NCBI GenBank assembly: GCA_903869075.1 | Contig: CAIPXZ010000327.1 | Span: 1 to 51,795, forward strand | DNA: 51,795 nucleotides | Direction: 5' to 3' | Origin: an uncultured Myxococcales bacterium | GTDB taxonomy: Bacteria > Myxococcota_A > UBA9042 | Shown here: positions 8,064 to 49,459 of the stretch, piece after piece | Numbering within the stretch: position 1 is the stretch's first letter | Layout of the letters: each line of letters begins with the position of its first letter | The notes under the pieces: model-generated | What the model was told of the DNA's origin: nothing | Databases searched by the model: none | The model's input: the letters and a program-made list of their open reading frames with translations, nothing else | Translations under genes and position numbers: made by a program

Positions 8064-8834
8064 TCACAGCCCGGCAAAGACCCGGCACGGAATGCCCAAC
8101 GCTTCCACCTGCGCGGCGATCCCTCGCGCCACGTCTTGCGGCACCATCGCCAACGCACGATCAATCGGCTTGCGGTCCAGCGTATACAAATCCACGCGCT
8201 TGGGCTGAATGTCCCGGATGCGCGCCAGCCACGCCGCCACTTCGGCGTCCGTGGTGTTGTCCACGCGACCGCGCACGAGGATTGTCTGCACGGCCACGCC
8301 CGGCAGGCTCGCCGCGGCAGCCGTCAGCGCGTCCAAAGACAGCGCCTCCCACGGCATGTCCAGCTTGGCAAATACCGCCTGCGTTCCGGCGTCCAGCTTC
8401 ACCGCGACTTCGCTCACGTGGCGCAGCGCTGCGCGCACCTCTGGCCGATGCAGCTCCGTCCCGGCCGTCAGCACCACAAGGCCGCGCCCCGGCAAGTAGC
8501 GGTCGCGCAGCCGCGCCAGCGTCGCCAACGCCACGTCCAGTTGCGGATGCAGCGTCGGCTCGCCGTTGCCGGACACCACGAGCGCGTCGATCGCCGGCCG
8601 CGCCTCGAGCGCCACGGTCACTTCCCGCTCCAGCGTCGCCACACTGGGAAATTCATGCGCCGCGCTGTGGTGTTTCTCCGCGCCTAGCTGGCAATACGTG
8701 CAGCGAAACGTGCAGAATTTGTCGCCCAGCGGCAGCAGGTTGATGCCCAGGGTGACGCCATACCGCCGCGACGGCACTGGCCCGTAGACCGTGTGCGGCG
8801 CAAGCTGACTGTGGGCGCTGTGCTGCGGTTCCAT
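8064..8834 (-). CDS. radical SAM protein (COG0731-like)
   Basis: 256 aa from ATG 8834; the longer track ORF to 9050 would overlap the upstream gene. The CxxxCxxC cluster motif sits in GDKFCTFRCTYCQLG, preceded by GPVPSRRYGVTLGINLLP. It starts 20 nt downstream of the preceding gene's stop. Confidence 0.85.
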   Translation of the reverse strand: MEPQHSAHSQLAPHTVYGPVPSRRYGVTLGINLLPLGDKFCTFRCTYCQLGAEKHHSAAHEFPSVATLEREVTVALEARPAIDALVVSGNGEPTLHPQLDVALATLARLRDRYLPGRGLVVLTAGTELHRPEVRAALRHVSEVAVKLDAGTQAVFAKLDMPWEALSLDALTAAAASLPGVAVQTILVRGRVDNTTDAEVAAWLARIRDIQPKRVDLYTLDRKPIDRALAMVPQDVARGIAAQVEALGIPCRVFAGL

Positions 8835-8854
8835 GCTCGCCTCCGGACCGGACT

Positions 8855-9526
8855 CTACTGCCGACCGCCCGGGATCGCCACATAGACGGTGTGGCGGCGG
8901 CCGCCTTTGCCCGGGTGATGGACCTGCACGCCAAAATCCAAGGATTGCAGGCGCTTGACAAACGGCGGGTCGAAATCTTCCGCCCACACCGTGAACAGCC
9001 CGCCCGGCCGCAGCGCCGCCAGCGTCCGCTGCAGCGCCGCCTTGCCCCAAAACGCGTCATCCGGCCGCTGCGAAGCCTCGTGCGGGCCTTCATACAAGTC
9101 CAGCACGATCGCGTCCCATTGCCCACGGCTCTCGCCGATCAGCCGCGCCACGTCGCCGACATGCAGCCGCGCCCGCGGATCGTGCAGCGCGTCGTCGGTG
9201 AGCAGCGCCAGCGGCCCTTCGCACCACTGCACCACGCGCGGGTTCAACTCGGCGACCGTCACTTCGGCGTCCGCCGGCAGGGCGTCCAGCGCCGCGCGCA
9301 GCGTATAGCCCATGCCAAGGCCGCCGATCAGCACCCGTGGTTTCACCTTTCCATGCAATGGCTTACACGCCAAGTCGGCAACTGCCAGCTCCGACCGGAA
9401 CGCCGTCGAGCTCATCAACACCCGCCCACCGACGAGGATGAGAAAGTCCTTTGGCCCGCGCTGCCGCAGCTCCAGATCGCCCTCCGGCGTCGGCAACTTA
9501 TCCAGGATTATCCATGGTTGCGCCAT
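8855..9526 (-). CDS. spermidine-synthase-like / class I SAM-dependent transferase
   Basis: 223 aa. Rossmann GxGxG motif in VLIGGLGMGYTLRAAL, then VAELNPRVV and DAIVLDLYEGP, resembling the PABS (spermine/spermidine synthase) fold. Confidence 0.75.
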   Translation of the reverse strand: MAQPWIILDKLPTPEGDLELRQRGPKDFLILVGGRVLMSSTAFRSELAVADLACKPLHGKVKPRVLIGGLGMGYTLRAALDALPADAEVTVAELNPRVVQWCEGPLALLTDDALHDPRARLHVGDVARLIGESRGQWDAIVLDLYEGPHEASQRPDDAFWGKAALQRTLAALRPGGLFTVWAEDFDPPFVKRLQSLDFGVQVHHPGKGGRRHTVYVAIPGGRQ

Positions 9527-35587: not shown

Positions 35588-38500
35588 CTACTGGCACACG
35601 CCGGCGCTGCAGGTCTTCGCCGCGCCGCAAGCGACGCCATCGGGCAGCGCGGTGTGGCTGCACAAGCCGGCGTTCGTGGCGAGGCAGACGTCCGCGGTGC
35701 ACGGGTTGGCGTCGTCGCACAGCGCCTCGGTCTGGCCGCCGCAGCTGCCGCTGTCGGCGCAGGTGACGTTGCCCCAGGTGTCGAGCTTGACGATCCAGCC
35801 GTCGCCCCAGCCTTTTTGGTCGTCGATGCCAGCAAGGACAAAGCCGTCGGTGGCGGTGGCGACCGCGGCGAGGCTGCACGTGCCTGTTGCGTTCGTGGTG
35901 TCCGCCGGCCTGGGGATGGCTTTTTGCCACAGCAGGTTGCCGTTCAGGTCCGTGCGGACGACGTAGCCTTCGCGGGCGGGCGCGCCAAAGCCGTCCGTCG
36001 CGCCGGCGAGGATCAGGCCGTCGCCGGTGGCGGTGATGCCGCTGCCGAAGTCATCCGCGGTCGAGCCGTAGGTCTTTTGCCACAAGACGTTGCCATTGGC
36101 GTCGAGGGCGACAAGCCAGACCTTGCTTGTCGCGGTCGGACTGGCGACGTAGCTGCCCACGACGTACAAAGTACCTGCAACTTCAACGATCTTGCCGAAG
36201 CTTGTGCCGAGGCTTGTCGTGGAGTTGAGATCGCCGGCGATGCGCTTGTCCCACAGTTTGGCGCCGCTTGCGTCGGTGCGCACGACCCAGCCGCCGTTGT
36301 CCGCGCGTCCGGCCATGACGATGTCGCCGTTGGCGGCGACGATAACGCCAGCACAGCTCTGGTAGTAGCTCGCCGGATCATAAAAATTGTGTGATTTAGC
36401 GTTGTTGCCGCTCGTGTCCGTCGTGAGGAGCCAGAAGTTTTCATCGCCGCCCAGCAAGGACGAAGACGTGCCGCCGCAAGCCACGTAGCCGCCGGGCCGC
36501 GTTGCGATGGCGTGCAACTCGTCCTGGCCGGTGCCACCGTAGGTCTTCTTCCACAGCATTGTCAGGCCGTCGGCGGCGACCGCGTAGAGGACGCCATCGT
36601 CGTGCGTCTGGTCGACGCCTGTGTTGCCGGCGAAGGTCCAGCCGCTGCCCGCCGCGACGACGTCGTGCAACTCGTCAAAGCCGCCGAGGTCGACGACGTT
36701 GCCCGCGTCGCCGTTCGCGTCGCTATTGAGAATGGTGCCGCCCAAGTCCGTGACAACCATCCACAAGTTGTCGGTGCCATGCGCCCGGCCGGCGAACGCG
36801 TAGCCGGTGGCGCTGACCGCGATGCCGCTCAAGCCGGCGTAGTAGTCAAAGCCCAGCGCGTGGCTGAAGGTCGATTTGTGGCCCGCGGCGCACGCGCCAG
36901 CCTTGCAGCTGTCCTGGAGCGTGCACGGGCTGCCGTCCTCGCACCTCAGGCCGTCGCTGACCGCCGTCGATTTGCAGCCGCCGTTGGCGTCGCAGACATC
37001 GAGCGTGCAGAGGTTGACGTCGTCGCAGTAGGCGCCAGAGGCGAAATTGACATGGCTGCACACGCCGGCGCTGCAGGCGTCATTGGTGCACAGGTTGCCG
37101 TCGCCGCAGTCGCTGGGACTCTTGCCCGCGCAGTCGCCCGACGCGGCGCACGTGCTGTTGCCAAAGCTGTCAAGGCGCACGAGGTAGCCCTGTCGGCCGT
37201 CGCTGCCGTCCTGCGCGCCACCGATCCACACACCTTGCGGCGTGGAAGCAACGGACTGGCCGAGCGCGAACAGGTCACCGGCCTTCGGATCCTTTTCCCA
37301 GAGCGTGTTGCCAGCCGTGTCCAGCCGCACCGCAAAGAGCCCGGACGGGGCGATTTGGTTGTAGCCCGAGACCAACATACCGTCGCTCAAGGTCAAGGCC
37401 CCAATTCCCTTCTTGGCGTTGTTCAGGCCGCCGACCTCGCGCATCCACAGTGGCGCGCCGTCGACTCCCAAGCGGTGCATGAACAGGGCGAAAGCGATGT
37501 CCGTGTTGGAGAAAGCGTTGACGACGACGTTGAAGCTGCCGTCGGGCAGCGCCGCGACGCCCATCAGCGTGCTGCTTGCGGACTTGCCGTCGTCGAACAG
37601 CTGGCCCCACAGCTTGTTGCCGTAGCTGTCGACGCCGATGGCGTAGCCCGCGGTGCCGCAACAGCCCGTGGGCACGTTGCCGCCGAGAATCCAGCCGCCG
37701 CTGGTGATCGGTGCGAGGCTTGTGATCTCCAAGTTGGCGGGAGAATTGTACGTATAGGTGTTCTTGAGGGTGCCGTCGCTGTGGAGCCGGGTCAGCGTGT
37801 TTCCGCCCACCGTGGCGTAACCCTCGCCGTCGACGATGATCGCGTTCTCGCCCGAGGCAACGTTGGTGCTCTGGACCAGGCCGCCATCCGCGACGGCGAG
37901 CGCAAGAAACCACGAAGCGCCGCTCTTGCTGGCCTGATGGCCGATGAACGCGACCGTGCCGACGTCGCGCACGCCGGCGTTGAGAATGTCGTCGCCCGGC
38001 GTGGCAAAGGTCTGGCTCCACAACGTGTTGCCGAGGGTGTCCAGCCGGCTGACCGTGGTGTCGATGCCAGCGCTGCCGCCGTTCATGCTCTGCACCGCCA
38101 TGATAACCCCGCCATCGTCCAGCCCCACGACGGCGGAGACCAAGTGCTCGACGGTGGCGCCGTACGTCTTGCTCCACAGCGTCGCGCTGCCCGTGCACAC
38201 GCCCGCGCTGCACGCGTCATTGACGGTGCAGACCGTGCCGTCGCTGCACGCGCTGCCGTCGCTCTTCGTCGGGTTGCTGCAGCTGCCGCTCGTGGTGTCG
38301 CAGGTGCCGGCGGCGTGGCACGTGTCGCTGGCGGTGCAGGTCTTGGCGGTCCCGGCGACGCACGCGCCGGACTGGCACGTGTCGGCCACCGTGCACGCAT
38401 TGCCGTCGCTGCAGGTCGCGCCGTTGGTCTTCCCCGGGTTGCTGCACGTGCCGCTCGTCGTGTCGCAGCTGCCGACGGCGTGGCACTGGTCGCTGGCGGT

Positions 38501-39841
38501 GCACACCACCGGATTGGCGCCGACGCACGCGCCGTTCTGGCAGGTGTCGCTCTGCGTGCACGCGTTGCCGTCGCTGCAGCTGTTCACGTTGTTGGTGTGG
38601 GTGCAGCCGCCGGCGGCGCAGCCGTCCGTCGTGCAGGGGTTTTTGTCGTCGCAGTCGAGCGGCGCGGCGCCTGGCATGCACGTGCCGCCCGCGCACTGGT
38701 CGCCCACCGTACACGGGTTGCCGTCGTCGCAGGCGAGCGTGTTGGCGGTGTGACTGCAGCCGGAATTCGCATCGCAGCTGTCGGTCGTGCACAGCTGGCC
38801 GTCGTCGCAGGTGACGCTCACGCCCTTGCACGTCCCGCTCGCGCACACGTCGGCCGAAGTGCAGGCGTCGCCATCGTCGCAACTGGCCGTGTTGACGCTG
38901 TGCAGGCAGCCTTGCAGCGCGTTGCAGCTGTCGGTGGTGCACGCGTTCTGGTCGTCGCAGTCCTGCACGGTCGGCGTCGCGCTGCAACTGCCGGCGAGGC
39001 AAGTGCTCGCGTCCTGCCAGCCGCCCGCGCCGCAGCTCTTGGCGCTGCATGCGGTACCGTCGGTCTGGGCAACGTGGCTGCAGCCGGATTGCGGCGTGCA
39101 GCCGTCGGTGGTGCACGGGTTGCCGTCGTCACAGGAAACCGTGCCGAGCGCCACGCACCCGCCTTCCTGGCAGCTCGCGGCGCTGACGCACTTGTCAGCC
39201 AATGTGCAGGTGCCGCTGGCGGCTGTGTGGAGGCAGCCGCTGGCGGTGTCGCAGCTGTCCGCACTGCAGCTGTTGCCGTCGTCGCAGCCGGTCACGGCGC
39301 CAGGCATGCAGACGCTGGCCGCGCAACTGTCGCCCAGCGTGCAGGCGTTGCCGTCTGAACAGGTGGCCGCGTTGGCCAAGTGGACGCACGCGCCGGCGTC
39401 GCCACAGCTGTCGTCGGTGCACGGGTTCTGGTCGTCGCACTGCGCCGCGGTGCAGCTCGGACCCGTGTCGCCGGTGGTGTCGCCGTCGGCATCCGCGTCC
39501 ACCGCGTCGGGGGCAGCATCGGGTTGCCCCGCGTCGGCGTCAGCGGTGTCCGCGACGACATCGCTGCCGGTGTCGCTGTCCACGCTGTCCGCGACGACAT
39601 CGCTGCCGGTGTCGGTGTCCACGCCGTCCGCCGCGACATCGCTGCCGGTGTCGGCATCCACGCCGTCCGCCGCGACATCGCTGCCAATGTCGGTGTCCAG
39701 CGGCGCAACGTCAGGCCCGCCATCGGCCGGCACCGCGCTATCGGCGACGATGTCCTGCTGGTCCAGGAAGGACTCGGCCGACGGCACGGTCTCCACGCAA
39801 CCGACGACGAGCACACTCAAAAATCCAAGCCAATACCGCAT
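35588..39841 (-). CDS. giant lipoprotein B: acidic tandem-repeat tether + Cys-rich repeat arrays alternating with two beta-propeller-like modules
   Basis: 1417 aa from ATG 39841. Lipobox in MRYWLGFLSVLVVG|CVE. I hand-count at least 16 CDDGNxCTxDxC-type units, in arrays at ~38186-39454, 36884-37153 and 35591-35764. Two modules (~37154-38185 and ~35765-36883) carry a recurring (V/L)xR(L/T)DxxGNxLW blade-like motif, about 5 copies each. Confidence 0.88.
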   Translation of the reverse strand: MRYWLGFLSVLVVGCVETVPSAESFLDQQDIVADSAVPADGGPDVAPLDTDIGSDVAADGVDADTGSDVAADGVDTDTGSDVVADSVDSDTGSDVVADTADADAGQPDAAPDAVDADADGDTTGDTGPSCTAAQCDDQNPCTDDSCGDAGACVHLANAATCSDGNACTLGDSCAASVCMPGAVTGCDDGNSCSADSCDTASGCLHTAASGTCTLADKCVSAASCQEGGCVALGTVSCDDGNPCTTDGCTPQSGCSHVAQTDGTACSAKSCGAGGWQDASTCLAGSCSATPTVQDCDDQNACTTDSCNALQGCLHSVNTASCDDGDACTSADVCASGTCKGVSVTCDDGQLCTTDSCDANSGCSHTANTLACDDGNPCTVGDQCAGGTCMPGAAPLDCDDKNPCTTDGCAAGGCTHTNNVNSCSDGNACTQSDTCQNGACVGANPVVCTASDQCHAVGSCDTTSGTCSNPGKTNGATCSDGNACTVADTCQSGACVAGTAKTCTASDTCHAAGTCDTTSGSCSNPTKSDGSACSDGTVCTVNDACSAGVCTGSATLWSKTYGATVEHLVSAVVGLDDGGVIMAVQSMNGGSAGIDTTVSRLDTLGNTLWSQTFATPGDDILNAGVRDVGTVAFIGHQASKSGASWFLALAVADGGLVQSTNVASGENAIIVDGEGYATVGGNTLTRLHSDGTLKNTYTYNSPANLEITSLAPITSGGWILGGNVPTGCCGTAGYAIGVDSYGNKLWGQLFDDGKSASSTLMGVAALPDGSFNVVVNAFSNTDIAFALFMHRLGVDGAPLWMREVGGLNNAKKGIGALTLSDGMLVSGYNQIAPSGLFAVRLDTAGNTLWEKDPKAGDLFALGQSVASTPQGVWIGGAQDGSDGRQGYLVRLDSFGNSTCAASGDCAGKSPSDCGDGNLCTNDACSAGVCSHVNFASGAYCDDVNLCTLDVCDANGGCKSTAVSDGLRCEDGSPCTLQDSCKAGACAAGHKSTFSHALGFDYYAGLSGIAVSATGYAFAGRAHGTDNLWMVVTDLGGTILNSDANGDAGNVVDLGGFDELHDVVAAGSGWTFAGNTGVDQTHDDGVLYAVAADGLTMLWKKTYGGTGQDELHAIATRPGGYVACGGTSSSLLGGDENFWLLTTDTSGNNAKSHNFYDPASYYQSCAGVIVAANGDIVMAGRADNGGWVVRTDASGAKLWDKRIAGDLNSTTSLGTSFGKIVEVAGTLYVVGSYVASPTATSKVWLVALDANGNVLWQKTYGSTADDFGSGITATGDGLILAGATDGFGAPAREGYVVRTDLNGNLLWQKAIPRPADTTNATGTCSLAAVATATDGFVLAGIDDQKGWGDGWIVKLDTWGNVTCADSGSCGGQTEALCDDANPCTADVCLATNAGLCSHTALPDGVACGAAKTCSAGVCQ
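39530..39703 (-). repeat. 4 x 39-bp in-frame tandem repeat (13-aa acidic unit GSDV(A/V)ADGVDxDT)
   Basis: Units at 39548-39586, 39587-39625, 39626-39664 and 39665-39703 on the + strand (gtccgcGacgacatcgctgccggtgtcgCtgtccacgcT and variants), with a decaying fifth copy down to ~39530. Confidence 0.9.
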
Positions 39842-40936: not shown

Positions 40937-40959
40937 GAAAATCCGCCAGTCGATGGCGG
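40937..40959 (-). terminator. candidate intrinsic terminator after the GMC oxidoreductase gene
   Basis: Minus strand reads CCGCCA-tcgac-TGGCGG followed by ATTTTC, ~55 nt downstream of the stop at 41012. Confidence 0.4.
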
Positions 40960-41011: not shown

Positions 41012-42508
41012 CTACTGCCGCAGGATGGACCGCGCGCAGAGCGTCGACAGCGCGAGGATAGACGTCTGCGGGTTCACGCCCGTCGCCGTCGGGAACACGC
41101 TGGAGTCGGCGACGTACAGCCCGGCGACCGTGTGGTGGCGAAAGTCGGGGCGCACGACCGCTGTCGCCGGGTCACTGCCCATCTGGCAGGTGCCAAAAAG
41201 GTGCGTGATTGCGCCATGATAGGCGTTGGCCTGGCGCGGCCCTTCGGTCTGGAACCGCACCATTTCGCGCGGATCGGTGACCACCGGCGCCCAGCCGTGC
41301 ACGCCCGGAAGCACGCGCAGCGCGCCCGCGGCAAACAGCATCTCGCCCAGCACCCGCACGCCGCGCCGCACGCAATCGACGTCGTGCGGCGTCAGGTCAT
41401 ACTGGATGAGCGGCCGGCCGCGCCAGCCCACGCGCACGCGCCCGCGGCCCTGCGCGCGCACCGCGACGCCCCAGTGGACCTCGTGCGCCAGCTGGTCCAG
41501 GTTGCGGGCAAACGCCCGTCCCATGCCATCCATGCGGCTGGCGATGATCGACGGATCGTAGCCAAGTGCCTCAAACTTGATGCCTTCCTTGCGCAGGCCG
41601 ATGACCTCGTGCCCCTGCGTCGCGCCGTTCCACATCCGCACCGTCTCGGCAAACTGGCCGACGACCGCCACGCCCGGATGCGCCTGCAGGTTGCGCCCGA
41701 CCGGGCCGTGCCGCACGCCGCTCTTGTGCAGCAGCATCGGCGTCTGGATCGCGCTGGCCGCCAGCACCACCGCCTGGCTGGCACGCACCGTCACCACGCC
41801 GCCGCCCGCCGCGCGCCCGACGACGCCGACCGCCCGGCCGTTCTCCACCGTCACGCCCTGCACCGCCACGCGGCTGAGGATCTGCGCGCCGGCGGCGCAC
41901 GCCAGCGGCAACAGCGTCAGGTCCATCGACTGCTTGCGGCCGTGCGGACAGCCCTGCAGGCAGCGCCCCAGACCTTCGCAGCCGCGGGTGTTGCGGGCGA
42001 TCGGCCGGTGCTCCAGCCCCAGCGCGTCGGCGCCCTTGGCCATCAGCAGGTTCTTCGGCCCCGCCACCGCGGCCTGGGTCGGCGCGATGCCCAGGTCGTC
42101 CTCGATCTCGGCAAAAAGCCGTTGCAGCACAGCGGCATCCAGCGTGCCGGCCAGTCCTGGATCCGCCGCCACCCAGCCGGCGCGCACGTCTTCCGGCAGC
42201 CGCCACGAGATCGCGCCGTTGACAACCGACGTGCCGCCCACCGCGCGTCCCTGCAGCACCGGCATCGGCGCATTGCCCAGCGCGACGTTCGCGCCCATGT
42301 CGCGGTACAGCAACGCCATCGAGGAAAAACCGTCGACCGGATAATCGCGCGGCTGCACCCACGGCCCCTCTTCCAGCACCACGACGCGCAGACCCGCTTG
42401 GGCCAGCGTCCGCGCCGCAGCCGCGCCAGCCGGACCGGAACCAACGATGGCGACGTCACACGTCACCGCGTGCGGCGCGGCGATGCCGGCGCCGTCCAGC
42501 ACGTTCAT
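41012..42508 (-). CDS. GMC-family FAD oxidoreductase
   Basis: 498 aa from ATG 42508. FAD motif CDVAIVGSGPAGAAAARTLAQAGLRVVVLEEG, Cys cluster NTRGCEGLGRCLQGCPHGRKQS, and C-terminal GTCQMGSDP..VADSSVFPTATGVNPQ. 4-nt ATGA overlap with the upstream gene. Confidence 0.88.
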   Translation of the reverse strand: MNVLDGAGIAAPHAVTCDVAIVGSGPAGAAAARTLAQAGLRVVVLEEGPWVQPRDYPVDGFSSMALLYRDMGANVALGNAPMPVLQGRAVGGTSVVNGAISWRLPEDVRAGWVAADPGLAGTLDAAVLQRLFAEIEDDLGIAPTQAAVAGPKNLLMAKGADALGLEHRPIARNTRGCEGLGRCLQGCPHGRKQSMDLTLLPLACAAGAQILSRVAVQGVTVENGRAVGVVGRAAGGGVVTVRASQAVVLAASAIQTPMLLHKSGVRHGPVGRNLQAHPGVAVVGQFAETVRMWNGATQGHEVIGLRKEGIKFEALGYDPSIIASRMDGMGRAFARNLDQLAHEVHWGVAVRAQGRGRVRVGWRGRPLIQYDLTPHDVDCVRRGVRVLGEMLFAAGALRVLPGVHGWAPVVTDPREMVRFQTEGPRQANAYHGAITHLFGTCQMGSDPATAVVRPDFRHHTVAGLYVADSSVFPTATGVNPQTSILALSTLCARSILRQ

Positions 42509-42885
42509 GGCACAACCCCCAGCGCGCGACGCGCCTTCGGGTCGCGAAACAGCGCAAAACAGGCAATGACCTTCAGCGTCGCCGCCAGCTGCCGCAGCAG
42601 GAACACCGGCGTGTCCGCCATTTGCGCCAGGAACGCGTCGCGGCGATCCGCCGACAGCGCGAAAAACGGCCGCCAATAGCCTGGCAGCACAAGCGGCAGC
42701 CACGTGAACGTCCAGGTCGTGAACCGCAGCCCCAGCCGCAGCAGCGGCGGCGCGACCTGCGCAAGCTCCGGCCAAAACGTCGTCAGGTCCACCTGCGGCA
42801 GCCCCGCGCGCTCCGGCAGGTCCGGCACCGTCGCGTCCAGCAGCAGCCGCAGCCAGCGCAGCTCAAACGCCAGCCAGCCGGTCAT
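42505..42885 (-). CDS. small hydrophobic protein coupled to the GMC oxidoreductase (unknown function)
   Basis: 126 aa (MTGWLAFELRWLRLLLDATVPDLPE..RFTTWTFTWLPLVLPGYWRPFFAL..). ATGA overlaps at both ends (42882-42885 and 42505-42508) argue for a real, translationally coupled gene. The rest of the 392-aa track ORF is junk. Confidence 0.6.
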   Translation of the reverse strand: MTGWLAFELRWLRLLLDATVPDLPERAGLPQVDLTTFWPELAQVAPPLLRLGLRFTTWTFTWLPLVLPGYWRPFFALSADRRDAFLAQMADTPVFLLRQLAATLKVIACFALFRDPKARRALGVVP

Positions 42886-44249
42886 GCGGCACCATGGGCA
42901 GCGACGAATTGCGCGACTTCGTCCTGAAACACCGCCATCAGCGTCTGGACCTCCGCGGCGGTCGCCACCGACGCCTTGAAGTTGAAGTTCAGCGTCGCCG
43001 TGCCGTCGTAGTTGGTCAGCGTCAGCACGATCGCCGTGCGCGGAATGAGCGGCGTGGACACGTACACCGCCGTCACCGCCCAGCCCGGACCGTGCAGCCG
43101 CGGGATCGGAATCGCCAGCACATTGCTGTAGTTCAGGTTGACGACCGTGCGCGGCGACGTGAACAACAGCTTGCGAAAATCCGCCATCTTCAGCGTCAGC
43201 GCAAACCAGCGCTCGAACAGGTAGCGCTTCAGGTGCGCGCGGCGGTCGTTCTGGGCTTTGACCTGGCGCTGGATCTCCGGCATCACGTCGGCGATGCCGT
43301 GAAAGCGCGTGAAGTCGATGTCCGGAATATGAAAGGCCAAATGGTTGGCAAATGAGCGAAACGGCTGGCCGCGCGGCCGCGTCTCCGCCGCCGTCGTCGC
43401 GTTCATCCGCGCGACTTTCACGCCCTGCGCCTCGTTCCAGCGCTTGTTGGCCACCAGGAACGCCGCCGCCAGCATCCAGTTCAGGTTGCCACCGGCGCGC
43501 TTGGCCGCGTCCTTCCATGCCTGCAGCGTCTCCGGCGCCAGCGGCACGTGCAAAGTCCGGTTGCCGCCTGAATAATCCAGCGACGCGTTCTGCTTGAGCA
43601 CCGACAGCGGCCGGCGCAGCGACACGAACGCGCTGCGGATGTACTCGCCGATGCCCGCCAGTAGCAGCCCGCGGCGCTGCCACGGCGTCAGGTCAAAAGC
43701 GTCCAGCTCGGCACGGCGCGGCACCACCGCGAGCGCGCGCGCGTCCGGCTGCGTGCCGGCGAGCGCGTGGTTCAGGAACGCCGCGAGATCCGGGAGCATT
43801 TCAATCATCGCCCGGCCATCCGCGAGGCCGTGGTGCTGCTTGACGAACAGCTGCGCGCGGTCGCCCGGCAGCCACGCGAGGATCAGCTGCAGCGGCGGGC
43901 GGGTGAACAGGTCCAGGAAGCGGTCGTGGACGTCGTCGCGCAGCGCCGCCAGCGCGTCGTCCGGCGCGGCGCGCAGGTCGTGGAACTCCAGCAGCTGCGC
44001 GAGCGGCGGCGTGTCGGGCCAGGACCACGCGAAATGCTTGGCAGAATCCGCAGTTCCATCCAGCGACACGACCGTCGCCGCGCAGCTCGGGTACGCCACG
44101 CACAGCCAGCGCAGCGCCTGCTCCAGCGCCGCGACCGGCGGCTGGCCCTCGATCGCCAGCTCCCACGTCGGCGCGTTCGAGCAGCCCAGCGGCCCGCTCG
44201 TCGCCGCCAGGCAGGCTTTGTCCAAATATTCAAAAGCTTGGCTTGGCAT
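42882..44249 (-). CDS. condensation-domain superfamily acyltransferase (HHxxxDG; WS/DGAT- or PapA5-like)
   Basis: 455 aa from ATG 44249. Catalytic motif in LFVKQHHGLADGRAMIEML. The size is typical of stand-alone condensation/WS-DGAT enzymes. It starts 12 nt after the CotH stop. Confidence 0.75.
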   Translation of the reverse strand: MPSQAFEYLDKACLAATSGPLGCSNAPTWELAIEGQPPVAALEQALRWLCVAYPSCAATVVSLDGTADSAKHFAWSWPDTPPLAQLLEFHDLRAAPDDALAALRDDVHDRFLDLFTRPPLQLILAWLPGDRAQLFVKQHHGLADGRAMIEMLPDLAAFLNHALAGTQPDARALAVVPRRAELDAFDLTPWQRRGLLLAGIGEYIRSAFVSLRRPLSVLKQNASLDYSGGNRTLHVPLAPETLQAWKDAAKRAGGNLNWMLAAAFLVANKRWNEAQGVKVARMNATTAAETRPRGQPFRSFANHLAFHIPDIDFTRFHGIADVMPEIQRQVKAQNDRRAHLKRYLFERWFALTLKMADFRKLLFTSPRTVVNLNYSNVLAIPIPRLHGPGWAVTAVYVSTPLIPRTAIVLTLTNYDGTATLNFNFKASVATAAEVQTLMAVFQDEVAQFVAAHGAA

Positions 44250-44261
44250 CAACGGCCCCAG

Positions 44262-45707
44262 CTATTTGCACGGCCCCAGCAGGTCGCTCAGGGTCTTTTG
44301 CCGCTTGGTGATGTAGGTCTGCAGCGCCAGGTATGCCGTGTCCAGCTGCTTGGGCGTGTACAAGCCCTTGGGATCACTGTAGACATACGGCTTGAGCGCC
44401 ATCTGCCAGGACTGCACGAGGGGCAGCAAAGTCGCGCTGTTGAAGAGCCCGCACTGCAGCGCCTGCAGCTTGGCCACCAGCTTGGGCTTGAGCACCGCGT
44501 TGTTCCAAATCCGCTTGTACAGCGTGTCCGTGCGGTCCGCGCACCAGCTGTTCGGCGGCCCCCACGGCGTCGCGAGCTCGTACCACGCGTCGTTGAAGTT
44601 GCCGAACGTCAGGTCGACGCCCGTCGGGATCATATGGAATTTTTTGGTCTTTTCGTCGCCGTAGATCGTGAAATTCTGCCCCGCTGACGCGAGGCCATCG
44701 AGGTTCGACAGCAGCGCGTCGACGGCGTAGTCCGCCAGCAGCTCATCGGTGTAGAAATACTTGTCGAGCACCGCCGGCAGCTGGTCATCAGTGGCGGTCG
44801 TGATGGCCTGCGCCGCGTCGACGATCGCCTGCGGGTCGCCCGGACTGCCGACGTACGCCGGCTTGAGCGCCGGACAGCCACCCGCCGTCGGGCAGTCGAT
44901 GCCCATGCAGCCGATGACCGGCTCGAACTTGTCGCCGTTCTTGTTGCCAAACGCGTTGGAAAAAAAGCGTTTATCCACGCTCTCTTGCAGCTCGTACGCG
45001 CCGTAGTCTTCGCCATTGACGGTGAAGTGCGCCCAGCTGAAGCGCGGGCCGTTGCCGCCGATCGTCCGCACGAGCGCGCCGGCGATGGGCTCGCGGATGA
45101 AGGTCGGGTCCTGGCCGGACGCCTTCAAGCGGAACTCTTTCTCGCCCAGCGGGCCATAGCCGGTGGTGACGAACTGGTCGAATTTGAAGCGCATATTCGG
45201 CTTGCCTGGGTTGTCGATCTGGCTGCCGTTGCCAAAGCCCTTGACGCCGGCGGCGCTGAACTTCTGGCCGTCAAACTCCACGTCCGCCTGGTCCCAGGTG
45301 TAGACCTTCATACCGTCGGGCTGGTTGACGCCGTTCAGGTACGCCGTCCAGTCCGCTGCGGCGAGCGTGACCTTGACCTCGTGGATGCCCTCGAAGTCGA
45401 ACATGCCGGTCGCTGGCGTTATCGCCGTGATTTCAGAGGGTAAGCCGCCGCCGATGTCGGCGATGATGTCGTACTGCACAACGTCCGGCTTGACCGTATC
45501 CGGCGCGTCGGCGCTGTCGACGTCCGCGGCATCGCTGCCATCCGCGGTGTCCAACACCGTCGCATCCTTGCCGGACGGCTGCCAATCGACCGTCGAGACG
45601 TCATCGGTGCTCGCGTCCGGGTCCGCACCGGCACCCGCGGGGTCGCTGCCGCACGCGCTCAACAGCCCCAGCCACGCCGCCATCATCCACAAGGTCGCTT
45701 GCCGCAT
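44262..45707 (-). CDS. CotH-family (atypical kinase fold) lipoprotein
   Basis: 481 aa from ATG 45707 (GGAGGA RBS). Lipobox in MRQATLWMMAAWLGLLSA|CGS, then an acidic tether. CotH-like core FRLKASGQDPTFIREPIAGALVRTIGGNGPRFSWAHFTVNGEDYGAYELQESVDKRFF. The remaining 722 aa of the track ORF are antisense shadow. Confidence 0.75.
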   Translation of the reverse strand: MRQATLWMMAAWLGLLSACGSDPAGAGADPDASTDDVSTVDWQPSGKDATVLDTADGSDAADVDSADAPDTVKPDVVQYDIIADIGGGLPSEITAITPATGMFDFEGIHEVKVTLAAADWTAYLNGVNQPDGMKVYTWDQADVEFDGQKFSAAGVKGFGNGSQIDNPGKPNMRFKFDQFVTTGYGPLGEKEFRLKASGQDPTFIREPIAGALVRTIGGNGPRFSWAHFTVNGEDYGAYELQESVDKRFFSNAFGNKNGDKFEPVIGCMGIDCPTAGGCPALKPAYVGSPGDPQAIVDAAQAITTATDDQLPAVLDKYFYTDELLADYAVDALLSNLDGLASAGQNFTIYGDEKTKKFHMIPTGVDLTFGNFNDAWYELATPWGPPNSWCADRTDTLYKRIWNNAVLKPKLVAKLQALQCGLFNSATLLPLVQSWQMALKPYVYSDPKGLYTPKQLDTAYLALQTYITKRQKTLSDLLGPCK

Positions 45708-45745
45708 GAGTCCTCCGTTGCGCACTTCGCGCACGATAACCGATT

Positions 45746-45779
45746 GCCACTGCGCGGGCCACTGCGCGAACACTGGCGC
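45746..45779. promoter_or_regulatory. tandem direct repeats in the cotH / glycosidase-like divergent promoter
   Basis: GCCACTGCGCG (45746-45756) and GCCACTGCGCG (45758-45768) at 12-bp period, plus a degenerate third copy ACACTGGCGC (45770-45779). The whole intergenic region is only 120 bp. Confidence 0.35.
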
Positions 45780-45827
45780 CCGCCGCGCTCTTGCCGTATC
45801 TTGCGCCAACCCGCGGAGGGCGGGCGT

Positions 45828-48041
45828 ATGCCGCGTATTTGCCTCACCATTTCCCTGCTCGTTGCGGCACTGCTCAGCGCGTGTACGGACGTGCCTTCCG
45901 CCAGCCCGCCGCCGCCCATCGCCGCAGAATTCCGCGCCCACGGCGACTACTTTGAGATCAACCGCGGCGATGGCTGGCAGAAGTTCATCGTCAACGGCGT
46001 CGACTTGGCCGTCGCCAAGCCCGGCTATTATCCCGGCGATCTGGCGGCGCAGCGCGACGACTACGACCGCTGGCTGGCGGGGATCGCCGAGATGGGCGCC
46101 AACGTCATCCGCGTCTACACGCTGCATTACCCCGTGTTTTATCAGGCTTTTCGCGATTGGAACCTGAACCACCCGGACAAGCCGCTGTACCTGCTGCACG
46201 GTATCTGGCTGGATGAGCGCACCGACGGCGACTACATGACTGATTCGACTGTGCTTTTTGAGGAAGAGATCCGCTTGGACGTCGACGCGATCCACGGCAA
46301 CGTCGACATCGACCCGCGCTTTGGCAAGGCGTCCGGTCACTACGACGCCGACATCTCGCCGTGGCTGATGGCGTGGCTGCCGGGCGATGAGATGGACGGC
46401 AACCTCGTCGCCGTGTCGAACCAAAAGTGGGCGGGGTACAACGAGTACAATGGCCGCTACATCCGCATGAAGAAAGGCGGTTTGCCGTTGGAAGGCTGGG
46501 TCGCGCACGAGCTGGACACGGTGCTGAGCTACGAATTTGACCGCTACGGCGAATTCCGGCCGATCGGCTGGTCCAGCTGGCCGGCGCTCGACCCGATCCA
46601 CCACCCGACCGAGTCGCCGAATTTCGGCCAGGACGTCGTCGACTGTAACTTCGCGCAGTTCGACCTCGTGGCGCCGTACGACAAGGGCCTGTTCGCCAGC
46701 TACCACATCTACCCATTCAACCCGGAATTCATCATCTACGACCCGGGTTACGACAAGACGCTCGACGCCGCCGGCGCCGTCAACAGCTACCTCGGCTACA
46801 TGAAGGACTTGAAGGCGCACCACGCCGGCGTACCGGTGCTTGTCGCCGAATACGGCATCCCGTCCAGCCAGGGCGTGGCGCACATCAACCCGTACGCCTA
46901 CAACCACGGCGGCTACAGCGAGGCGGAACAGGCGGATGTTGTTTACGATTTGTACCACAGCTGCATGCAAGCCGGCATGGCCGGGACGGTCGCTTTCGAG
47001 TGGATCGACGAGTGGTTCAAGCGCACCTGGGTGACGACGCCGACGATGCTGCCGGCGGACAGCGGCCGGCTGTGGCTGGACGTGATGAGCCCGGAGGAAA
47101 ACTTCGGAATTCTCTCGTATTACCCGCTGCCCGGCTGGTCCAAGACCGTCGACGGCAAGCCCGACGATTGGAGCGCCCAGGACTTTGCGGCCGCGCAGCA
47201 GACACCCCAGCCCGGCGGCCTCGCGCACGTGCAGCTGGCGGCGGACCCGGCGTTCCTGTACCTGAGCATCCAGCTGGCCGATGACGCGACGCCGAACTTG
47301 AGCAAACTCTCGCTGCTGATTGGCATTTCGACGGCGGAGGGCGACACCGGCAACCACCTGCTGGGCGCGCTGACGACGCCGCAGGACACGACGCTGGCGA
47401 CCGACGGCTTCGGCTTTGAGTCGCTTGTGCTGCTGGACGGCGCGACCGATGAGCTGCGGATCGACGCCACCTACGACCCGATGCCGAAGATCAACGGCGC
47501 CAGCAAGGTCGGCGGCACGCCGGTGGCGACGACCGATGGGCAATTCCTGCTTGAAAATCAGCTGGTCAACAACAACGCGCAGTACCAGTCGATGGACGTG
47601 GAGTTCGACGGCAAGCAGTGGCCGCCGCCGCCGAAACAGTACCACGCCTGGGGCAAGCTGGTGGTCGGCGATGCGACGACGAACACGCTGGCGAACGTGC
47701 AGGTGGGGCCGCACGGCGTGCTGGAAATTCGCTTGCCGTGGCACGCGATTTGGGTGACCGACCCGTCCAGCCGCAGCATCTTGTGGGACGATCCGACGAC
47801 GCCGGACTGGGATGTGAAGGTCACCGAAGGCATTCGGATTTTCGTGGCGACGGCGCAGAAGTCCGGCGATCACTACCGGCTTGTGGACGCCGCGCCGCGC
47901 GACGCGGTGGCTGGCGGGACGCTCGTCGGCGCCAAGCTGCCGCTGTTTACGTGGCCGACCTGGAGCACCGTCAGCAACGTCGTCGAACGACGCAAGCCCT
48001 TGTTTTACGCGCTGAAGACCGCGTTCGCGGAGAACCCATGA
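45828..48041 (+). CDS. TIM-barrel (clan GH-A-like) glycoside hydrolase/transglycosylase-like lipoprotein
   Basis: 737 aa from ATG 45828 (GGAGGG upstream). Lipobox in MPRICLTISLLVAALLSA|CTD. Motifs GANVIRVYTLHYP, LLHGIWLDE, VLVAEYGIPSS and FEWIDEWFKRTW recall retaining (beta/alpha)8 glycosidases (GH72/GH5/GH2-like). The family is not resolved. Confidence 0.6.
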   Translation: MPRICLTISLLVAALLSACTDVPSASPPPPIAAEFRAHGDYFEINRGDGWQKFIVNGVDLAVAKPGYYPGDLAAQRDDYDRWLAGIAEMGANVIRVYTLHYPVFYQAFRDWNLNHPDKPLYLLHGIWLDERTDGDYMTDSTVLFEEEIRLDVDAIHGNVDIDPRFGKASGHYDADISPWLMAWLPGDEMDGNLVAVSNQKWAGYNEYNGRYIRMKKGGLPLEGWVAHELDTVLSYEFDRYGEFRPIGWSSWPALDPIHHPTESPNFGQDVVDCNFAQFDLVAPYDKGLFASYHIYPFNPEFIIYDPGYDKTLDAAGAVNSYLGYMKDLKAHHAGVPVLVAEYGIPSSQGVAHINPYAYNHGGYSEAEQADVVYDLYHSCMQAGMAGTVAFEWIDEWFKRTWVTTPTMLPADSGRLWLDVMSPEENFGILSYYPLPGWSKTVDGKPDDWSAQDFAAAQQTPQPGGLAHVQLAADPAFLYLSIQLADDATPNLSKLSLLIGISTAEGDTGNHLLGALTTPQDTTLATDGFGFESLVLLDGATDELRIDATYDPMPKINGASKVGGTPVATTDGQFLLENQLVNNNAQYQSMDVEFDGKQWPPPPKQYHAWGKLVVGDATTNTLANVQVGPHGVLEIRLPWHAIWVTDPSSRSILWDDPTTPDWDVKVTEGIRIFVATAQKSGDHYRLVDAAPRDAVAGGTLVGAKLPLFTWPTWSTVSNVVERRKPLFYALKTAFAENP

Positions 48042-49459
48042 ACTGGCGCCACTTTGCGTTGTTGGGCAGCTGCCTGTGCGCCGCGCCGGTCTGGGCGGCG
48101 ACGATCCCCAACGCCGGCTTTGAGCAGGCCAACGCCGACGGCGGCGCCGGTCCCGCCAGCTGGACGACCGACCAGTGGGGCGACGTCCAGGCCACCTTCA
48201 CCTGGACACTCGTCGGCCACAGTGGCCGCGGCGGGCGCGTGCAGGTGACCGCGTCGGGCGCGACCGGCGACGCCAAGTGGTGGGGCGTCGACTTCGCCGC
48301 CGATGGCCAGGACACGCTCTACCAGGTCAGCGACTGGTACCGCGCCGACGTGCCGACCGACCTGATCCTCTGGGTGCAGTTCGCCGACGGCACCGAGTCC
48401 TATCAGCCGGTCCTGACGCTGCCCGCCGCGGCGACCTGGACGCAGGCATCCGGGCCTGTGACGGTGCCGGCGGGTGCGCAGCGGCTGCGGGTGCTGCACG
48501 TGATCAGCCAGATCGGCAGCCTGGACATCGACGACGTCGCCTGCGTCGGCCAAAACGGCGGCGGCACGATTGGCACCGGCAAGTACAAAGCCACCGTCAC
48601 CTTCACCTTCGACGACGGCTGGCTCTCCGCCTACAACATGCTGATCCCGCGGCTGGAAAAGATGGGCTGGCGCGGCACCAACTTCATCATCACGACCTAC
48701 CCCGACAAGCCCGGCTACCAGTCCGACTACATTTTGTCCAAGGACGTGAAATCGCTGATGGATCGCTGCCACGAGGTCGCCAGTCACACCCTGACGCACC
48801 CGGACTTGGCGACGCTGACCGCGGCGCAGTGGACGTCCGAGATCACCGACCCGATCCCGACGCTGAAGGCTTGGGGCTCGGGCGTCTTCGGCATCGCGCC
48901 GCCCTATGGCTCGTACACGCAGCCGATCCTGGCGGCGATGGCCAAGCTGTACCCGTACATGCGGACGCTGCACCCGGACGTGAACCAGCCGCCGTACAAC
49001 CTCCACGAGCTGAACGGCCACGTGCTGACCAATATCTCGCAGAACAACGAGCTCGAGGAGCTGCTGACGCGCGCCGAGCAGATCGAGGACGGCTGGGTCA
49101 TCCTCGTGTTCCACCGCGCCTCGGCGGACGCGCCGAGCGACGCGTACGTGACGCCGGACCAGTTCCAGGGCTTCCTGGACCTCGTGCAAAAGCACGGCGC
49201 GAAGGTGGAGACGATCGCGCAGCATCTGGGGCTGCAGCAGTGCACGCCGTTGCCGACGCAGCCGACGCTCGTTGTGGGCGACAAGTCGCTGGACGCGCCG
49301 GCGGCGGCGACCTCAGCGACGGCGGAGGGCAGTTCCGGCACGGCTTCAGGCTGCAACGCGACGCCGCGACCCAACGCGATGTGGCCGCTGCTCGCGGGCG
49401 CGCTGGCGCTGCTGCGGGCGCGGCGGCGGGCGGCAAAGCCCAATGTGCGACCGGGCTAG
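48038..49459 (+). CDS. polysaccharide deacetylase (NodB) with N-terminal CBM4/9-like module and MYXO-CTERM-like tail
   Basis: 473 aa. ATGA overlap with the upstream gene. Signal peptide MNWRHFALLGSCLCAAPVWA, then a CBM-like TIPNAGFEQANADGG..W. NodB motifs TFTFDDGW and EVASHTLTH. C-terminus SGTASGCNATPRPNAMWPLLAGALALLRARRRAA (GC + hydrophobic helix + RRR). Confidence 0.85.
   Translation: MNWRHFALLGSCLCAAPVWAATIPNAGFEQANADGGAGPASWTTDQWGDVQATFTWTLVGHSGRGGRVQVTASGATGDAKWWGVDFAADGQDTLYQVSDWYRADVPTDLILWVQFADGTESYQPVLTLPAAATWTQASGPVTVPAGAQRLRVLHVISQIGSLDIDDVACVGQNGGGTIGTGKYKATVTFTFDDGWLSAYNMLIPRLEKMGWRGTNFIITTYPDKPGYQSDYILSKDVKSLMDRCHEVASHTLTHPDLATLTAAQWTSEITDPIPTLKAWGSGVFGIAPPYGSYTQPILAAMAKLYPYMRTLHPDVNQPPYNLHELNGHVLTNISQNNELEELLTRAEQIEDGWVILVFHRASADAPSDAYVTPDQFQGFLDLVQKHGAKVETIAQHLGLQQCTPLPTQPTLVVGDKSLDAPAAATSATAEGSSGTASGCNATPRPNAMWPLLAGALALLRARRRAAKPNVRPG

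Follow-up and report, generated by a model that had tools for sequence, protein, structure and literature searches.

The known dehydrogenase complexes that depend on flavin adenine dinucleotide (FAD) are periplasmic, require twin-arginine translocation (Tat) and contain a hitchhiker subunit and a cytochrome c, and they are used in direct-electron-transfer biosensors. In the FAD-glucose dehydrogenase of Burkholderia cepacia (BcGDH), Cys212, Cys218 and Cys222 ligate a 3Fe-4S cluster through which electrons pass from FAD to the partner, and a His/Asn pair is catalytic (PMC6719666). AzeD (PDB 8S6L), the founding stand-alone condensation (C) protein, is a dehydratase that carries PHxxxDG and acts on the free secondary alcohol made by the dehydrogenase AzeE (bioRxiv 10.64898/2026.07.17.738954). 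In CotH of Bacillus subtilis, D228 is the catalytic Asp and D251, in the PWD motif, is a second essential, metal-binding Asp (PMC7821199). The stretch of DNA analysed here (the window, 51,795 nt; positions 1 to 51,795 of the forward strand of contig CAIPXZ010000327.1, GenBank assembly GCA_903869075.1, from an uncultured Myxococcales bacterium placed in Bacteria; Myxococcota_A; UBA9042) carries on its minus strand, between 41012 and 45707, four tightly packed genes that bring a relative of each of these proteins together with a fourth, unannotated one. This four-gene operon is a combination peculiar to one clade, and its modules also occur separately. From the first gene to the last it consists of:

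44262-45707, minus strand: g1, CotH-family kinase-fold lipoprotein, 481 amino acids
42882-44249, minus strand: g2, stand-alone protein of the condensation/chloramphenicol acetyltransferase (CAT) fold, putative acyltransferase, 455 amino acids, no signal peptide
42505-42885, minus strand: g3, predicted all-helical protein of a family without annotation, 126 amino acids
41012-42508, minus strand: g4, GMC-family FAD dehydrogenase, 498 amino acids, no signal peptide

An earlier reading of the DNA letters and their translations (the sequence-only reading) had placed four minus-strand genes here, and its coordinates proved exact: g1 and g2 are separated by 12 nt, and ATGA start/stop overlaps join g2 to g3 (42882-42885) and g3 to g4 (42505-42508). 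It also regarded CotH as translationally linked to the other three, which fits the overlapping g2-g4 but not g1 and g2, which do not overlap. Coding bias is evident in all four genes (GC content of 0.87-0.89 at the third codon position vs 0.45-0.52 at the second), homologues elsewhere were found for each, GGAGGA precedes the g1 start, and g2 has an alternative start, a TTG 3 nt upstream. That reading knew of no described system with this composition, which still stands.

Conservation of the linkage was surveyed with tblastn and profile searches across all fetched loci (L numbers below; individual homologous proteins carry P numbers). The full g1-g2-g3-g4 set was present in eight loci, namely the window, L008, L012-L016 and L055, with g2 identities of 71-89%, and both the g2/g3 and the g3/g4 ATGA overlaps recurred in L008 and L055. 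The linkage noticed in the window thus recurs in other genomes, but within a narrow clade only, and it splits outside that clade. All eight loci also carry a divergently transcribed gene for a lipoprotein of 737 amino acids, and all except L055 a polysaccharide deacetylase gene; this pair is a more persistent neighbour of CotH than is g2.

Beyond the clade, the parts were found in several partial combinations. Two lineages, L001/L002 and L006, have CotH and g2 without g3 and g4; the gene directly after g2 encodes a Dicty_CTDC protein in L001, whereas in L006 a radical SAM gene intervenes between g2 and the gene for a Dicty_CTDC protein. Conversely, g3 and a GMC gene occur without g2 or CotH in L009-L011, which represent two lineages. 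In L034, from a distant metagenome-assembled genome (MAG) whose g2 is 33% identical to that of the window, the order is GH1-g3-GMC-g2 and CotH is absent. Some 25 further g2 loci have no homologues of g1, g3 or g4, and their neighbours are unrelated to one another; profile searches of six-frame open reading frames (ORFs) in the g2 loci for distant CotH, g3 and GMC proteins found none beyond those detected by tblastn, the one weak GMC match (L026) being unrelated. CotH-subfamily genes at 40-63% identity, in turn, occur without g2 (L042-L050, L053 and L054), and in P0092 and L048-L050 CotH is fused to Dicty_CTDC Cys-rich repeats.

In L053, the most revealing of these loci, CotH (55% identical), the 737-amino-acid lipoprotein (72% identical) and the deacetylase are kept while g2-g4 are absent; in their place CotH, whose final base opens the next start codon, overlaps by 1 nt a metallophosphoesterase gene, which is followed by one for a CBM9-like protein (L053:8464-10784, plus strand). 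The metallophosphoesterase is a secreted, Cys-rich protein (PF00149) with the motifs GDTRPP, GNHE and GHTH. With an exported protein of kinase fold thus encoded next to a phosphoesterase, L053 hints at phosphoryl chemistry outside the cytoplasm.

One account of such a pattern is that the four genes share no function and perhaps nothing more than a promoter, having been brought together by local rearrangement, for instance by insertion of g3 and g4 into a variable slot after CotH-g2. What occupies that slot does vary, from nothing (L001) through a radical SAM gene (L006) and g3 with GMC (the window clade) to the metallophosphoesterase and CBM9-like genes (L053), and the neighbours of lone g2 genes have no common theme. 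Clustering of neighbours over 42 loci, tried as a route to a conserved partner for lone g2, returned lineage synteny only; among 84 g2 neighbours scanned with Pfam, the commonest family was radical SAM, with four, and the radical SAM genes near g2 in L006 and L034 are not orthologous to each other. Yet the ATGA coupling of g2, g3 and g4 has been kept in eight loci, down to 71% g2 identity, and g2 and g3 plus GMC adjoin again in L034, in another order, with both families being rare in the sampled set. We regard mere co-location as unlikely. A separate observation is that an ORF at 8067-9056 of the window (minus strand), 35 kb from the operon, is 64% identical to the radical SAM protein encoded after g2 in L006; at that distance, the radical SAM gene has evidently changed its position with respect to the g2 locus from one relative to another.

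The product of g3 had no match in Pfam, NCBIfam or the PDB and no Foldseek match at E<0.8, and no named Pfam family was matched at E<=10 by any of 19 members of its family; it is predicted to be all-helical, only one of five AlphaFold2 (AF2) models being confident. The sequence-only reading had taken it for a small membrane protein, a description that its marginal hydropathy does not convincingly support: the best 19-residue value (KD19) was 1.82, over a stretch that holds both an Arg and a Lys. Identification with the Gluconate_2-dh3/Tat hitchhiker subunit, considered because of a similarity in motif, was rejected, since the 19 members lack a Pfam match and the PDB profile search, Foldseek and a search for a twin-arginine motif were all negative. 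What characterizes g3 instead is its conserved association with GMC enzymes. The g3 gene lies directly upstream of the GMC gene in every examined locus that has both, with the 4-nt overlap kept in the window, L008, L055, L009 and L011, and in P0123 (642 amino acids) a g3 domain and a GMC enzyme with the same Cys cluster follow each other in one protein. The family is also large: a word-based search gave 24 clusters, and an exhaustive profile search gave 913 representatives at 50% identity (at least 913).

A third component accompanies g3 elsewhere. In L009/L010 and L011, genes for a 167-amino-acid protein resembling a transmembrane (TM) protein with four spans, g3 and GMC are consecutive, mostly with 4-nt overlaps, g2 and CotH being absent, and in P0141, P0145 and P0158 this protein is fused to g3. 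At its N-terminal end the 167-amino-acid protein (L009:7501-8004; L011:5412-5918) carries the motif FW.QP..(R/H)YRNFQ, and neither Pfam nor NCBIfam has a match for it; as it lacks any invariant His or Cys, it is probably not a haem protein. The possibility that the window hides such an anchor was discarded after a negative tblastn search. From these fusions and gene orders we read g3 as a dedicated partner or adaptor subunit of the GMC dehydrogenase; the fusions, the overlaps and the loci without g2 or CotH together make g3 and g4 an independent, widespread module.

The GMC assignment of g4 made by the sequence-only reading was borne out, both domains being matched (GMC_oxred_N, PF00732, E=2.2e-42; GMC_oxred_C, PF05199, E=2.2e-24). 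An FAD-binding GSGPAG motif lies at residues 23-28, and H436 and N479 align with His476 and Asn519 of BcGDH at an equal spacing of 43 residues. Val replaces His105, the residue to which FAD is covalently attached in BcGDH. The Cys cluster of g4 aligns with the 197-229 loop of BcGDH and is spaced as are Cys212, Cys218 and Cys222:

41945-41980, minus strand: Cys cluster of g4, C177-x5-C183-x3-C187-P188, putative 3Fe-4S site, invariant in six orthologues

A 3Fe-4S cluster is probably bound by C177, C183 and C187, and the match to the ligands of dehydrogenase complexes argues for a dehydrogenase rather than an oxidase; the sequence-only reading had named both oxidases and dehydrogenases on the basis of this cluster, and of the two we retain the latter. 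By sequence g4 is distant from every solved GMC enzyme, its best PDB relatives being a chloramphenicol-inactivating oxidoreductase, hydroxyparomomycin oxidase, 7QF8 (a GMC family protein that we take to be a glycoside 3-oxidase), FAD-glucose dehydrogenase and fructose dehydrogenase. Neither a signal peptide nor a twin-arginine motif nor CxxCH was found in g2-g4, and among all operon and flanking proteins there was no CxxCH and no Pfam match to a cytochrome.

The sequence-only reading had called g2 an HHxxxDG acyltransferase. The motif is present and strongly conserved:

43815-43835, minus strand: HHGLADG motif of g2, residues 139-145, with H139, H140, D144 and G145 invariant in 25 family members

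The fold also agreed with that description. The AF2 model (pLDDT 94.4, pTM 0.92) is a two-lobed, V-shaped CAT fold, for which the best Foldseek match was AzeD (8S6L; E=1.8e-22, TM-scores of 0.78/0.81), followed by C and epimerization (E) domains of nonribosomal peptide synthetases (NRPS), the WS/DGAT structure 6CHJ and TRI3. The family profile matched the C domain of PvdL in the PDB (6.5e-12) and AzeD over its full length (2.2e-8, residues 32-442), with an identity between g2 and AzeD of about 14%. Assignment to a named acyltransferase family did not succeed: WS_DGAT_C (PF06974) was matched marginally (21.4 bits vs a cutoff of 20.7), Condensation scored 18.3 bits, below its cutoff, and the Pfam scan of g2 found no WS/DGAT N-terminal domain and no carrier, adenylation or other domains. 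Membership of WS/DGAT itself was rejected, as the TIGR02946 score of 42.6 bits (E=3.8e-11) is far short of the cutoff, 309.95, and the N-terminal domain is unmatched. Two members of the g2 family match PapA_C (PF16911). The family comprises 35 clusters and 30 genome loci, from Myxococcota-type MAGs of lakes, groundwater and similar habitats, and has motifs of its own (LDK, SNAPTW, QN.SLDYSG.NRT, RPR..FRSFANHL and NLNFSN).

Because both His residues of HHxxxDG are kept, acyl transfer is the likeliest chemistry, which makes g2 a putative acyltransferase. By analogy with the pair formed by the dehydrogenase AzeE and the dehydratase AzeD, g2 might instead be a dehydratase-, epimerase- or cyclase-like enzyme working with the GMC protein on a free small molecule, in tailoring a specialised metabolite or in the detoxification of a xenobiotic alcohol. 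AzeD is after all both the best structural match and the only full-length sequence match to g2, small molecules and sugars are the substrates of the proteins closest to g4 in the PDB, and some g2 homologues have GH1, GT1 and methyltransferase genes as neighbours. However, AzeD has Pro for the first of the two His that are invariant in g2, its identity to g2 is only about 14%, and no NRPS, polyketide synthase, carrier-protein or other biosynthetic genes occur in the operon or its flanks, so that we consider a non-acyltransferase role rather improbable. In two g2 homologues, P0030 and P0033 (L005:8001-9869), an extra N-terminal domain of about 160 amino acids with several hydrophobic helices suggests a g2 family working at the membrane; a relationship of this extension to the 167-amino-acid anchor was rejected (hhalign probability 0.4%).

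The first gene does encode a CotH-family lipoprotein, as proposed. It matched PF08757 over profile positions 17-322 of 322 (114.5 bits, cutoff 23.8, E=9.3e-33) and CotH of Bacillus cereus (PDB 5JD9) over residues 188-477 (E=5.4e-11). A lipobox (LSAC, Cys19) is followed by an acidic low-complexity linker extending to about residue 85 and by the CotH domain at residues 173-473; in addition to the lipobox Cys, the subfamily alignment shows conservation of six others. The lipoprotein signal (LLSAC) and its conserved Cys fit an extracytoplasmic location. The catalytic residues lie in the following segment:

44613-44699, minus strand: catalytic segment of g1, with D337 (equivalent to D228 of B. subtilis CotH), N345, G363 and D365 placed by alignment

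When the catalytic residues were checked by alignment, D337 and N345 were invariant in 21 sequences including B. cereus CotH, but the position of the canonical PWD Asp (D251), placed in g1 by its spacing of 23 residues from D228, is occupied by Gly363; D365, two residues further on, is invariant in the subfamily. PWD is kept in the distant CotH proteins P0094 and P0095 and in B. cereus CotH, and P0096 has G-x-D like g1. Catalytic competence of g1 is plausible from these residues.

With a potentially active kinase at its head, the operon could, in line with the sequence-only reading, encode a single pathway that modifies a surface lipid, a glycolipid or the spore coat, CotH phosphorylating the product of g2-g4, or its carrier or receptor protein, at the cell surface. 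Such a pathway would suit the tight packing of the operon, the retention of the four-gene set in eight loci, the retained catalytic Asp and Asn of CotH, the envelope- and glycan-related proteins encoded divergently, and the pairing of CotH with g2 also in L001 and L006, where the gaps are 3-24 nt and the surroundings rearranged. The genes nevertheless part company in both directions: CotH orthologues at 40-63% identity lack g2, with the metallophosphoesterase instead in L053, and CotH is missing from about 25 g2 loci as well as from the g3-GMC-g2 locus L034. The Gly at the canonical Mg-binding Asp position also counts against it, and a shared enzymatic pathway is topologically awkward because CotH is exported, hence extracytoplasmic, and the proteins g2-g4, without signal peptides, are predicted to be cytoplasmic. 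As for the spore coat, the role in sporulation that the sequence-only reading had considered finds no support: the relatives come from lake and groundwater MAGs (lake water in the case of the operon), no evidence of sporulation was obtained, and Pfam named no spore-coat families among the operon neighbours, CotB and CotG homologues not having been searched for specifically. Taken as a whole, we think an integrated pathway of the four proteins distinctly improbable.

We favour instead, at slightly less than an even chance, a lineage-specific operon of separable modules in which g2 and g3/g4 share a substrate and CotH is not a member of their pathway. Module A, g3 with g4 and the best-defined unit of the locus, would be a two-component flavoprotein dehydrogenase for an alcohol or sugar, whose cytoplasmic FAD enzyme oxidises a hydroxyl to a carbonyl and, with a 3Fe-4S cluster at its surface, passes electrons to a partner and not to O2; in other genomes g3 would link the GMC enzyme to the 167-amino-acid membrane protein. 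Module B, g2, would most likely transfer an acyl group from acyl-coenzyme A or an acyl carrier protein to a hydroxyl or amine. The two would act, on the cytoplasmic side of the inner membrane, on one and the same hydroxylated compound, lipophilic or glycosidic in nature; our best guess is a precursor of, for example, an envelope lipid or glycolipid, which would undergo oxidation as well as acylation. A shared substrate is suggested because g2 takes the ATGA-coupled slot that the membrane protein holds elsewhere and because the two modules are juxtaposed in L034. There are weak hints as to its nature: genes for a FadR-type regulator and an SCP2 protein adjoin g3-GMC modules, GH1 or GT1 genes adjoin some g2 or g3-GMC genes, and the solved structures closest to g4 are of sugar-oxidising enzymes. 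Module C, g1, would be an exported CotH protein that is co-expressed with g2-g4 and probably carries out no enzymatic step of their pathway, given its export, its other, more persistent surface associates and the swapping of the genes downstream of it between close relatives.

Several results weigh against this interpretation. CotH and g2 stay together, 3-24 nt apart, in three gene arrangements that differ from one another, and this may reflect a real functional link that separable modules underplay. In L034, g2 lies 350-420 nt past the GMC gene and so may be a separate transcription unit, and since a GMC gene is missing from the 10 kb around most g2 homologues the coupling of g2 to GMC is facultative. 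The membrane anchor of the other loci is missing from the window by tblastn, the nearest solved structure to g2, AzeD, is a dehydratase, and the 3Fe-4S assignment comes from Cys spacing and a single alignment. A search for RNA runs containing the region found none, the sequence being seen only in DNA metagenomes from lake, pond and permafrost. A bolder reading is that the g3 adaptor docks onto a 4-TM anchor in most genomes and onto g2 here, forming a physical g2-g3-g4 complex in which oxidation and acylation of one envelope lipid or glycolipid precursor are coupled, and that the product or its surface carrier is phosphorylated outside the cytoplasm by the exported CotH with its shifted G-x-D metal site. 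This we hold to be very unlikely; were it true, it would constitute an undescribed envelope-modification pathway with an extracytoplasmic kinase.

The operon of separable modules would presumably be transcribed as one unit from the region upstream of g1. The features that bound it, and the genes divergent from it, are as follows:

45708-45827, no strand assigned: divergent intergenic region of 120 nt between g1 and the opposite-strand gene for the 737-amino-acid lipoprotein
40937-40959, minus strand: weak hairpin, 6-bp stem CCGCCA/TGGCGG with the tail AUUUUC, 53 nt past the g4 stop
45828-49459, plus strand: divergent pair comprising the orphan 737-amino-acid lipoprotein (45828-48041) and an HfsH-like polysaccharide deacetylase (48038-49459), with an ATGA overlap

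The 120-nt region is presumed to hold the promoters of g1 and of the divergent lipoprotein gene; a promoter scan found no sigma-70 consensus in it. The hairpin that the sequence-only reading described as terminator-like does exist, but its terminator character did not hold up: its fold is at chance level (z=-0.73; 41 of 200 shuffled sequences folded equally well or better) and it was not called by a terminator scan, so that the end of the operon is placed solely by the 175-217-nt gap to the next gene. GC content is high across the window (64-71%), and the flanks include ferredoxin and frataxin genes among the housekeeping set of a Myxococcota-type chromosome. By our own reading of the translations, the window also contains a run of ORFs like NADH-dehydrogenase membrane subunits and an ORF like pyruvate:ferredoxin oxidoreductase.

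The 737-amino-acid lipoprotein had no Pfam, NCBIfam or PDB match. A second large lipoprotein (1417 amino acids; 35588-39841, minus strand) contains Dicty_CTDC Cys-rich repeats and an N-terminal acidic tandem motif (…DTGSDVAADGVD…), and homologous repeat proteins are encoded after the CotH operon in L001, L006, L012, L013 and L016. It is a possible client of CotH, but these genomes encode repeat proteins of this kind in abundance. Near g2 in L034, at a distance of 4 kb, is a gene for a CruF-like carotenoid biosynthesis protein (PF04240; L034:15276-16328, plus strand), and in L022 and L027 g2 is immediately preceded by genes for a GT1 glycosyltransferase and a methyltransferase (L022:6008-9078, plus strand). 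Such neighbours may be a hint that some g2 homologues have substrates that are glycosylated and lipophilic; the more specific idea of a carotenoid glycoside ester was dropped, the evidence from these three loci being too thin. In L025, L026 and L028, g2 stands between a chorismate mutase/prephenate dehydrogenase gene and a TPR/thioredoxin gene. These three loci and L024 are labelled 'uncultured Enterobacterales', and as the g2 family is otherwise restricted to Myxococcota-type genomes the labels are doubtful.

The roles of all four families are uncertain in Gram-negative bacteria. Every catalytic component belongs to a known superfamily, and the locus is therefore not categorically new. If confirmed, however, g3, a family of at least 913 clusters at 50% identity that is fused or coupled to a GMC subfamily with the 3Fe-4S motif, would define a new dehydrogenase architecture, and a cytoplasm-facing version with other partners would widen the class of FAD-dependent dehydrogenases. 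Confirmation for g2 would add a Myxococcota-restricted family of stand-alone C-domain proteins, with HHxxxDG intact and no NRPS context, to a group recognised only lately, and an exported CotH with catalytic residues would raise the question of non-spore substrates and of the source of the phosphate donor. For annotation, the names 'spore coat protein H', 'wax ester synthase' and 'choline dehydrogenase' should not be carried onto these genes. The reusable result is the g3 family with its fusions, not the link to CotH that prompted the analysis.

Set beside the described systems, each module shares a core with its counterpart and departs from it in setting. Like CotH of B. subtilis and B. cereus (5JD9), g1 belongs to PF08757 and has the catalytic Asp and the Asn that follows it. 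Bacillus CotH, however, is a coat protein of the mother-cell cytoplasm, whereas g1 is exported as a lipoprotein and has, besides six conserved Cys, an acidic linker; where B. subtilis has D251 of PWD, g1 has Gly and an invariant Asp two residues later; and the recurrent neighbours of g1 are the orphan lipoprotein, the deacetylase and Dicty_CTDC repeat proteins.

The CAT/condensation fold of g2 is common to AzeD, to the mycobacterial PapA5-type acyltransferases and to WS/DGAT enzymes (AtfA; 6CHJ). It is a discrete protein like AzeD and PapA5, with an intact HHxxxDG in contrast to the Pro that replaces the first His in AzeD, and it falls far below the WS/DGAT cutoff, with the N-terminal domain of that family unmatched. 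Among stand-alone C proteins, g2 is thus a distinct, Myxococcota-restricted family near AzeD and PapA5.

The closest parallel for the remaining two genes is offered by the gamma-alpha-beta complexes of the BcGDH type (6A2U; fructose dehydrogenase, 7W2J), which have the GMC His/Asn pair and a C-x5-C-x3-C-P loop like that of g4, and in which a small partner gene stands immediately upstream, as g3 does before g4. Those complexes are periplasmic, whereas g4 is predicted to be cytoplasmic; their hitchhiker has a Tat signal, which g3 lacks together with any detectable sequence or fold similarity to it; and they include a multihaem cytochrome c subunit, of which the g4 locus has no counterpart, the third component of g3-GMC modules elsewhere being, unlike that cytochrome, a TM-like protein of 167 amino acids with no conserved His or Cys. 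By this comparison, the FAD-dependent dehydrogenase complexes seem to have in g3/g4 a variant of new architecture.

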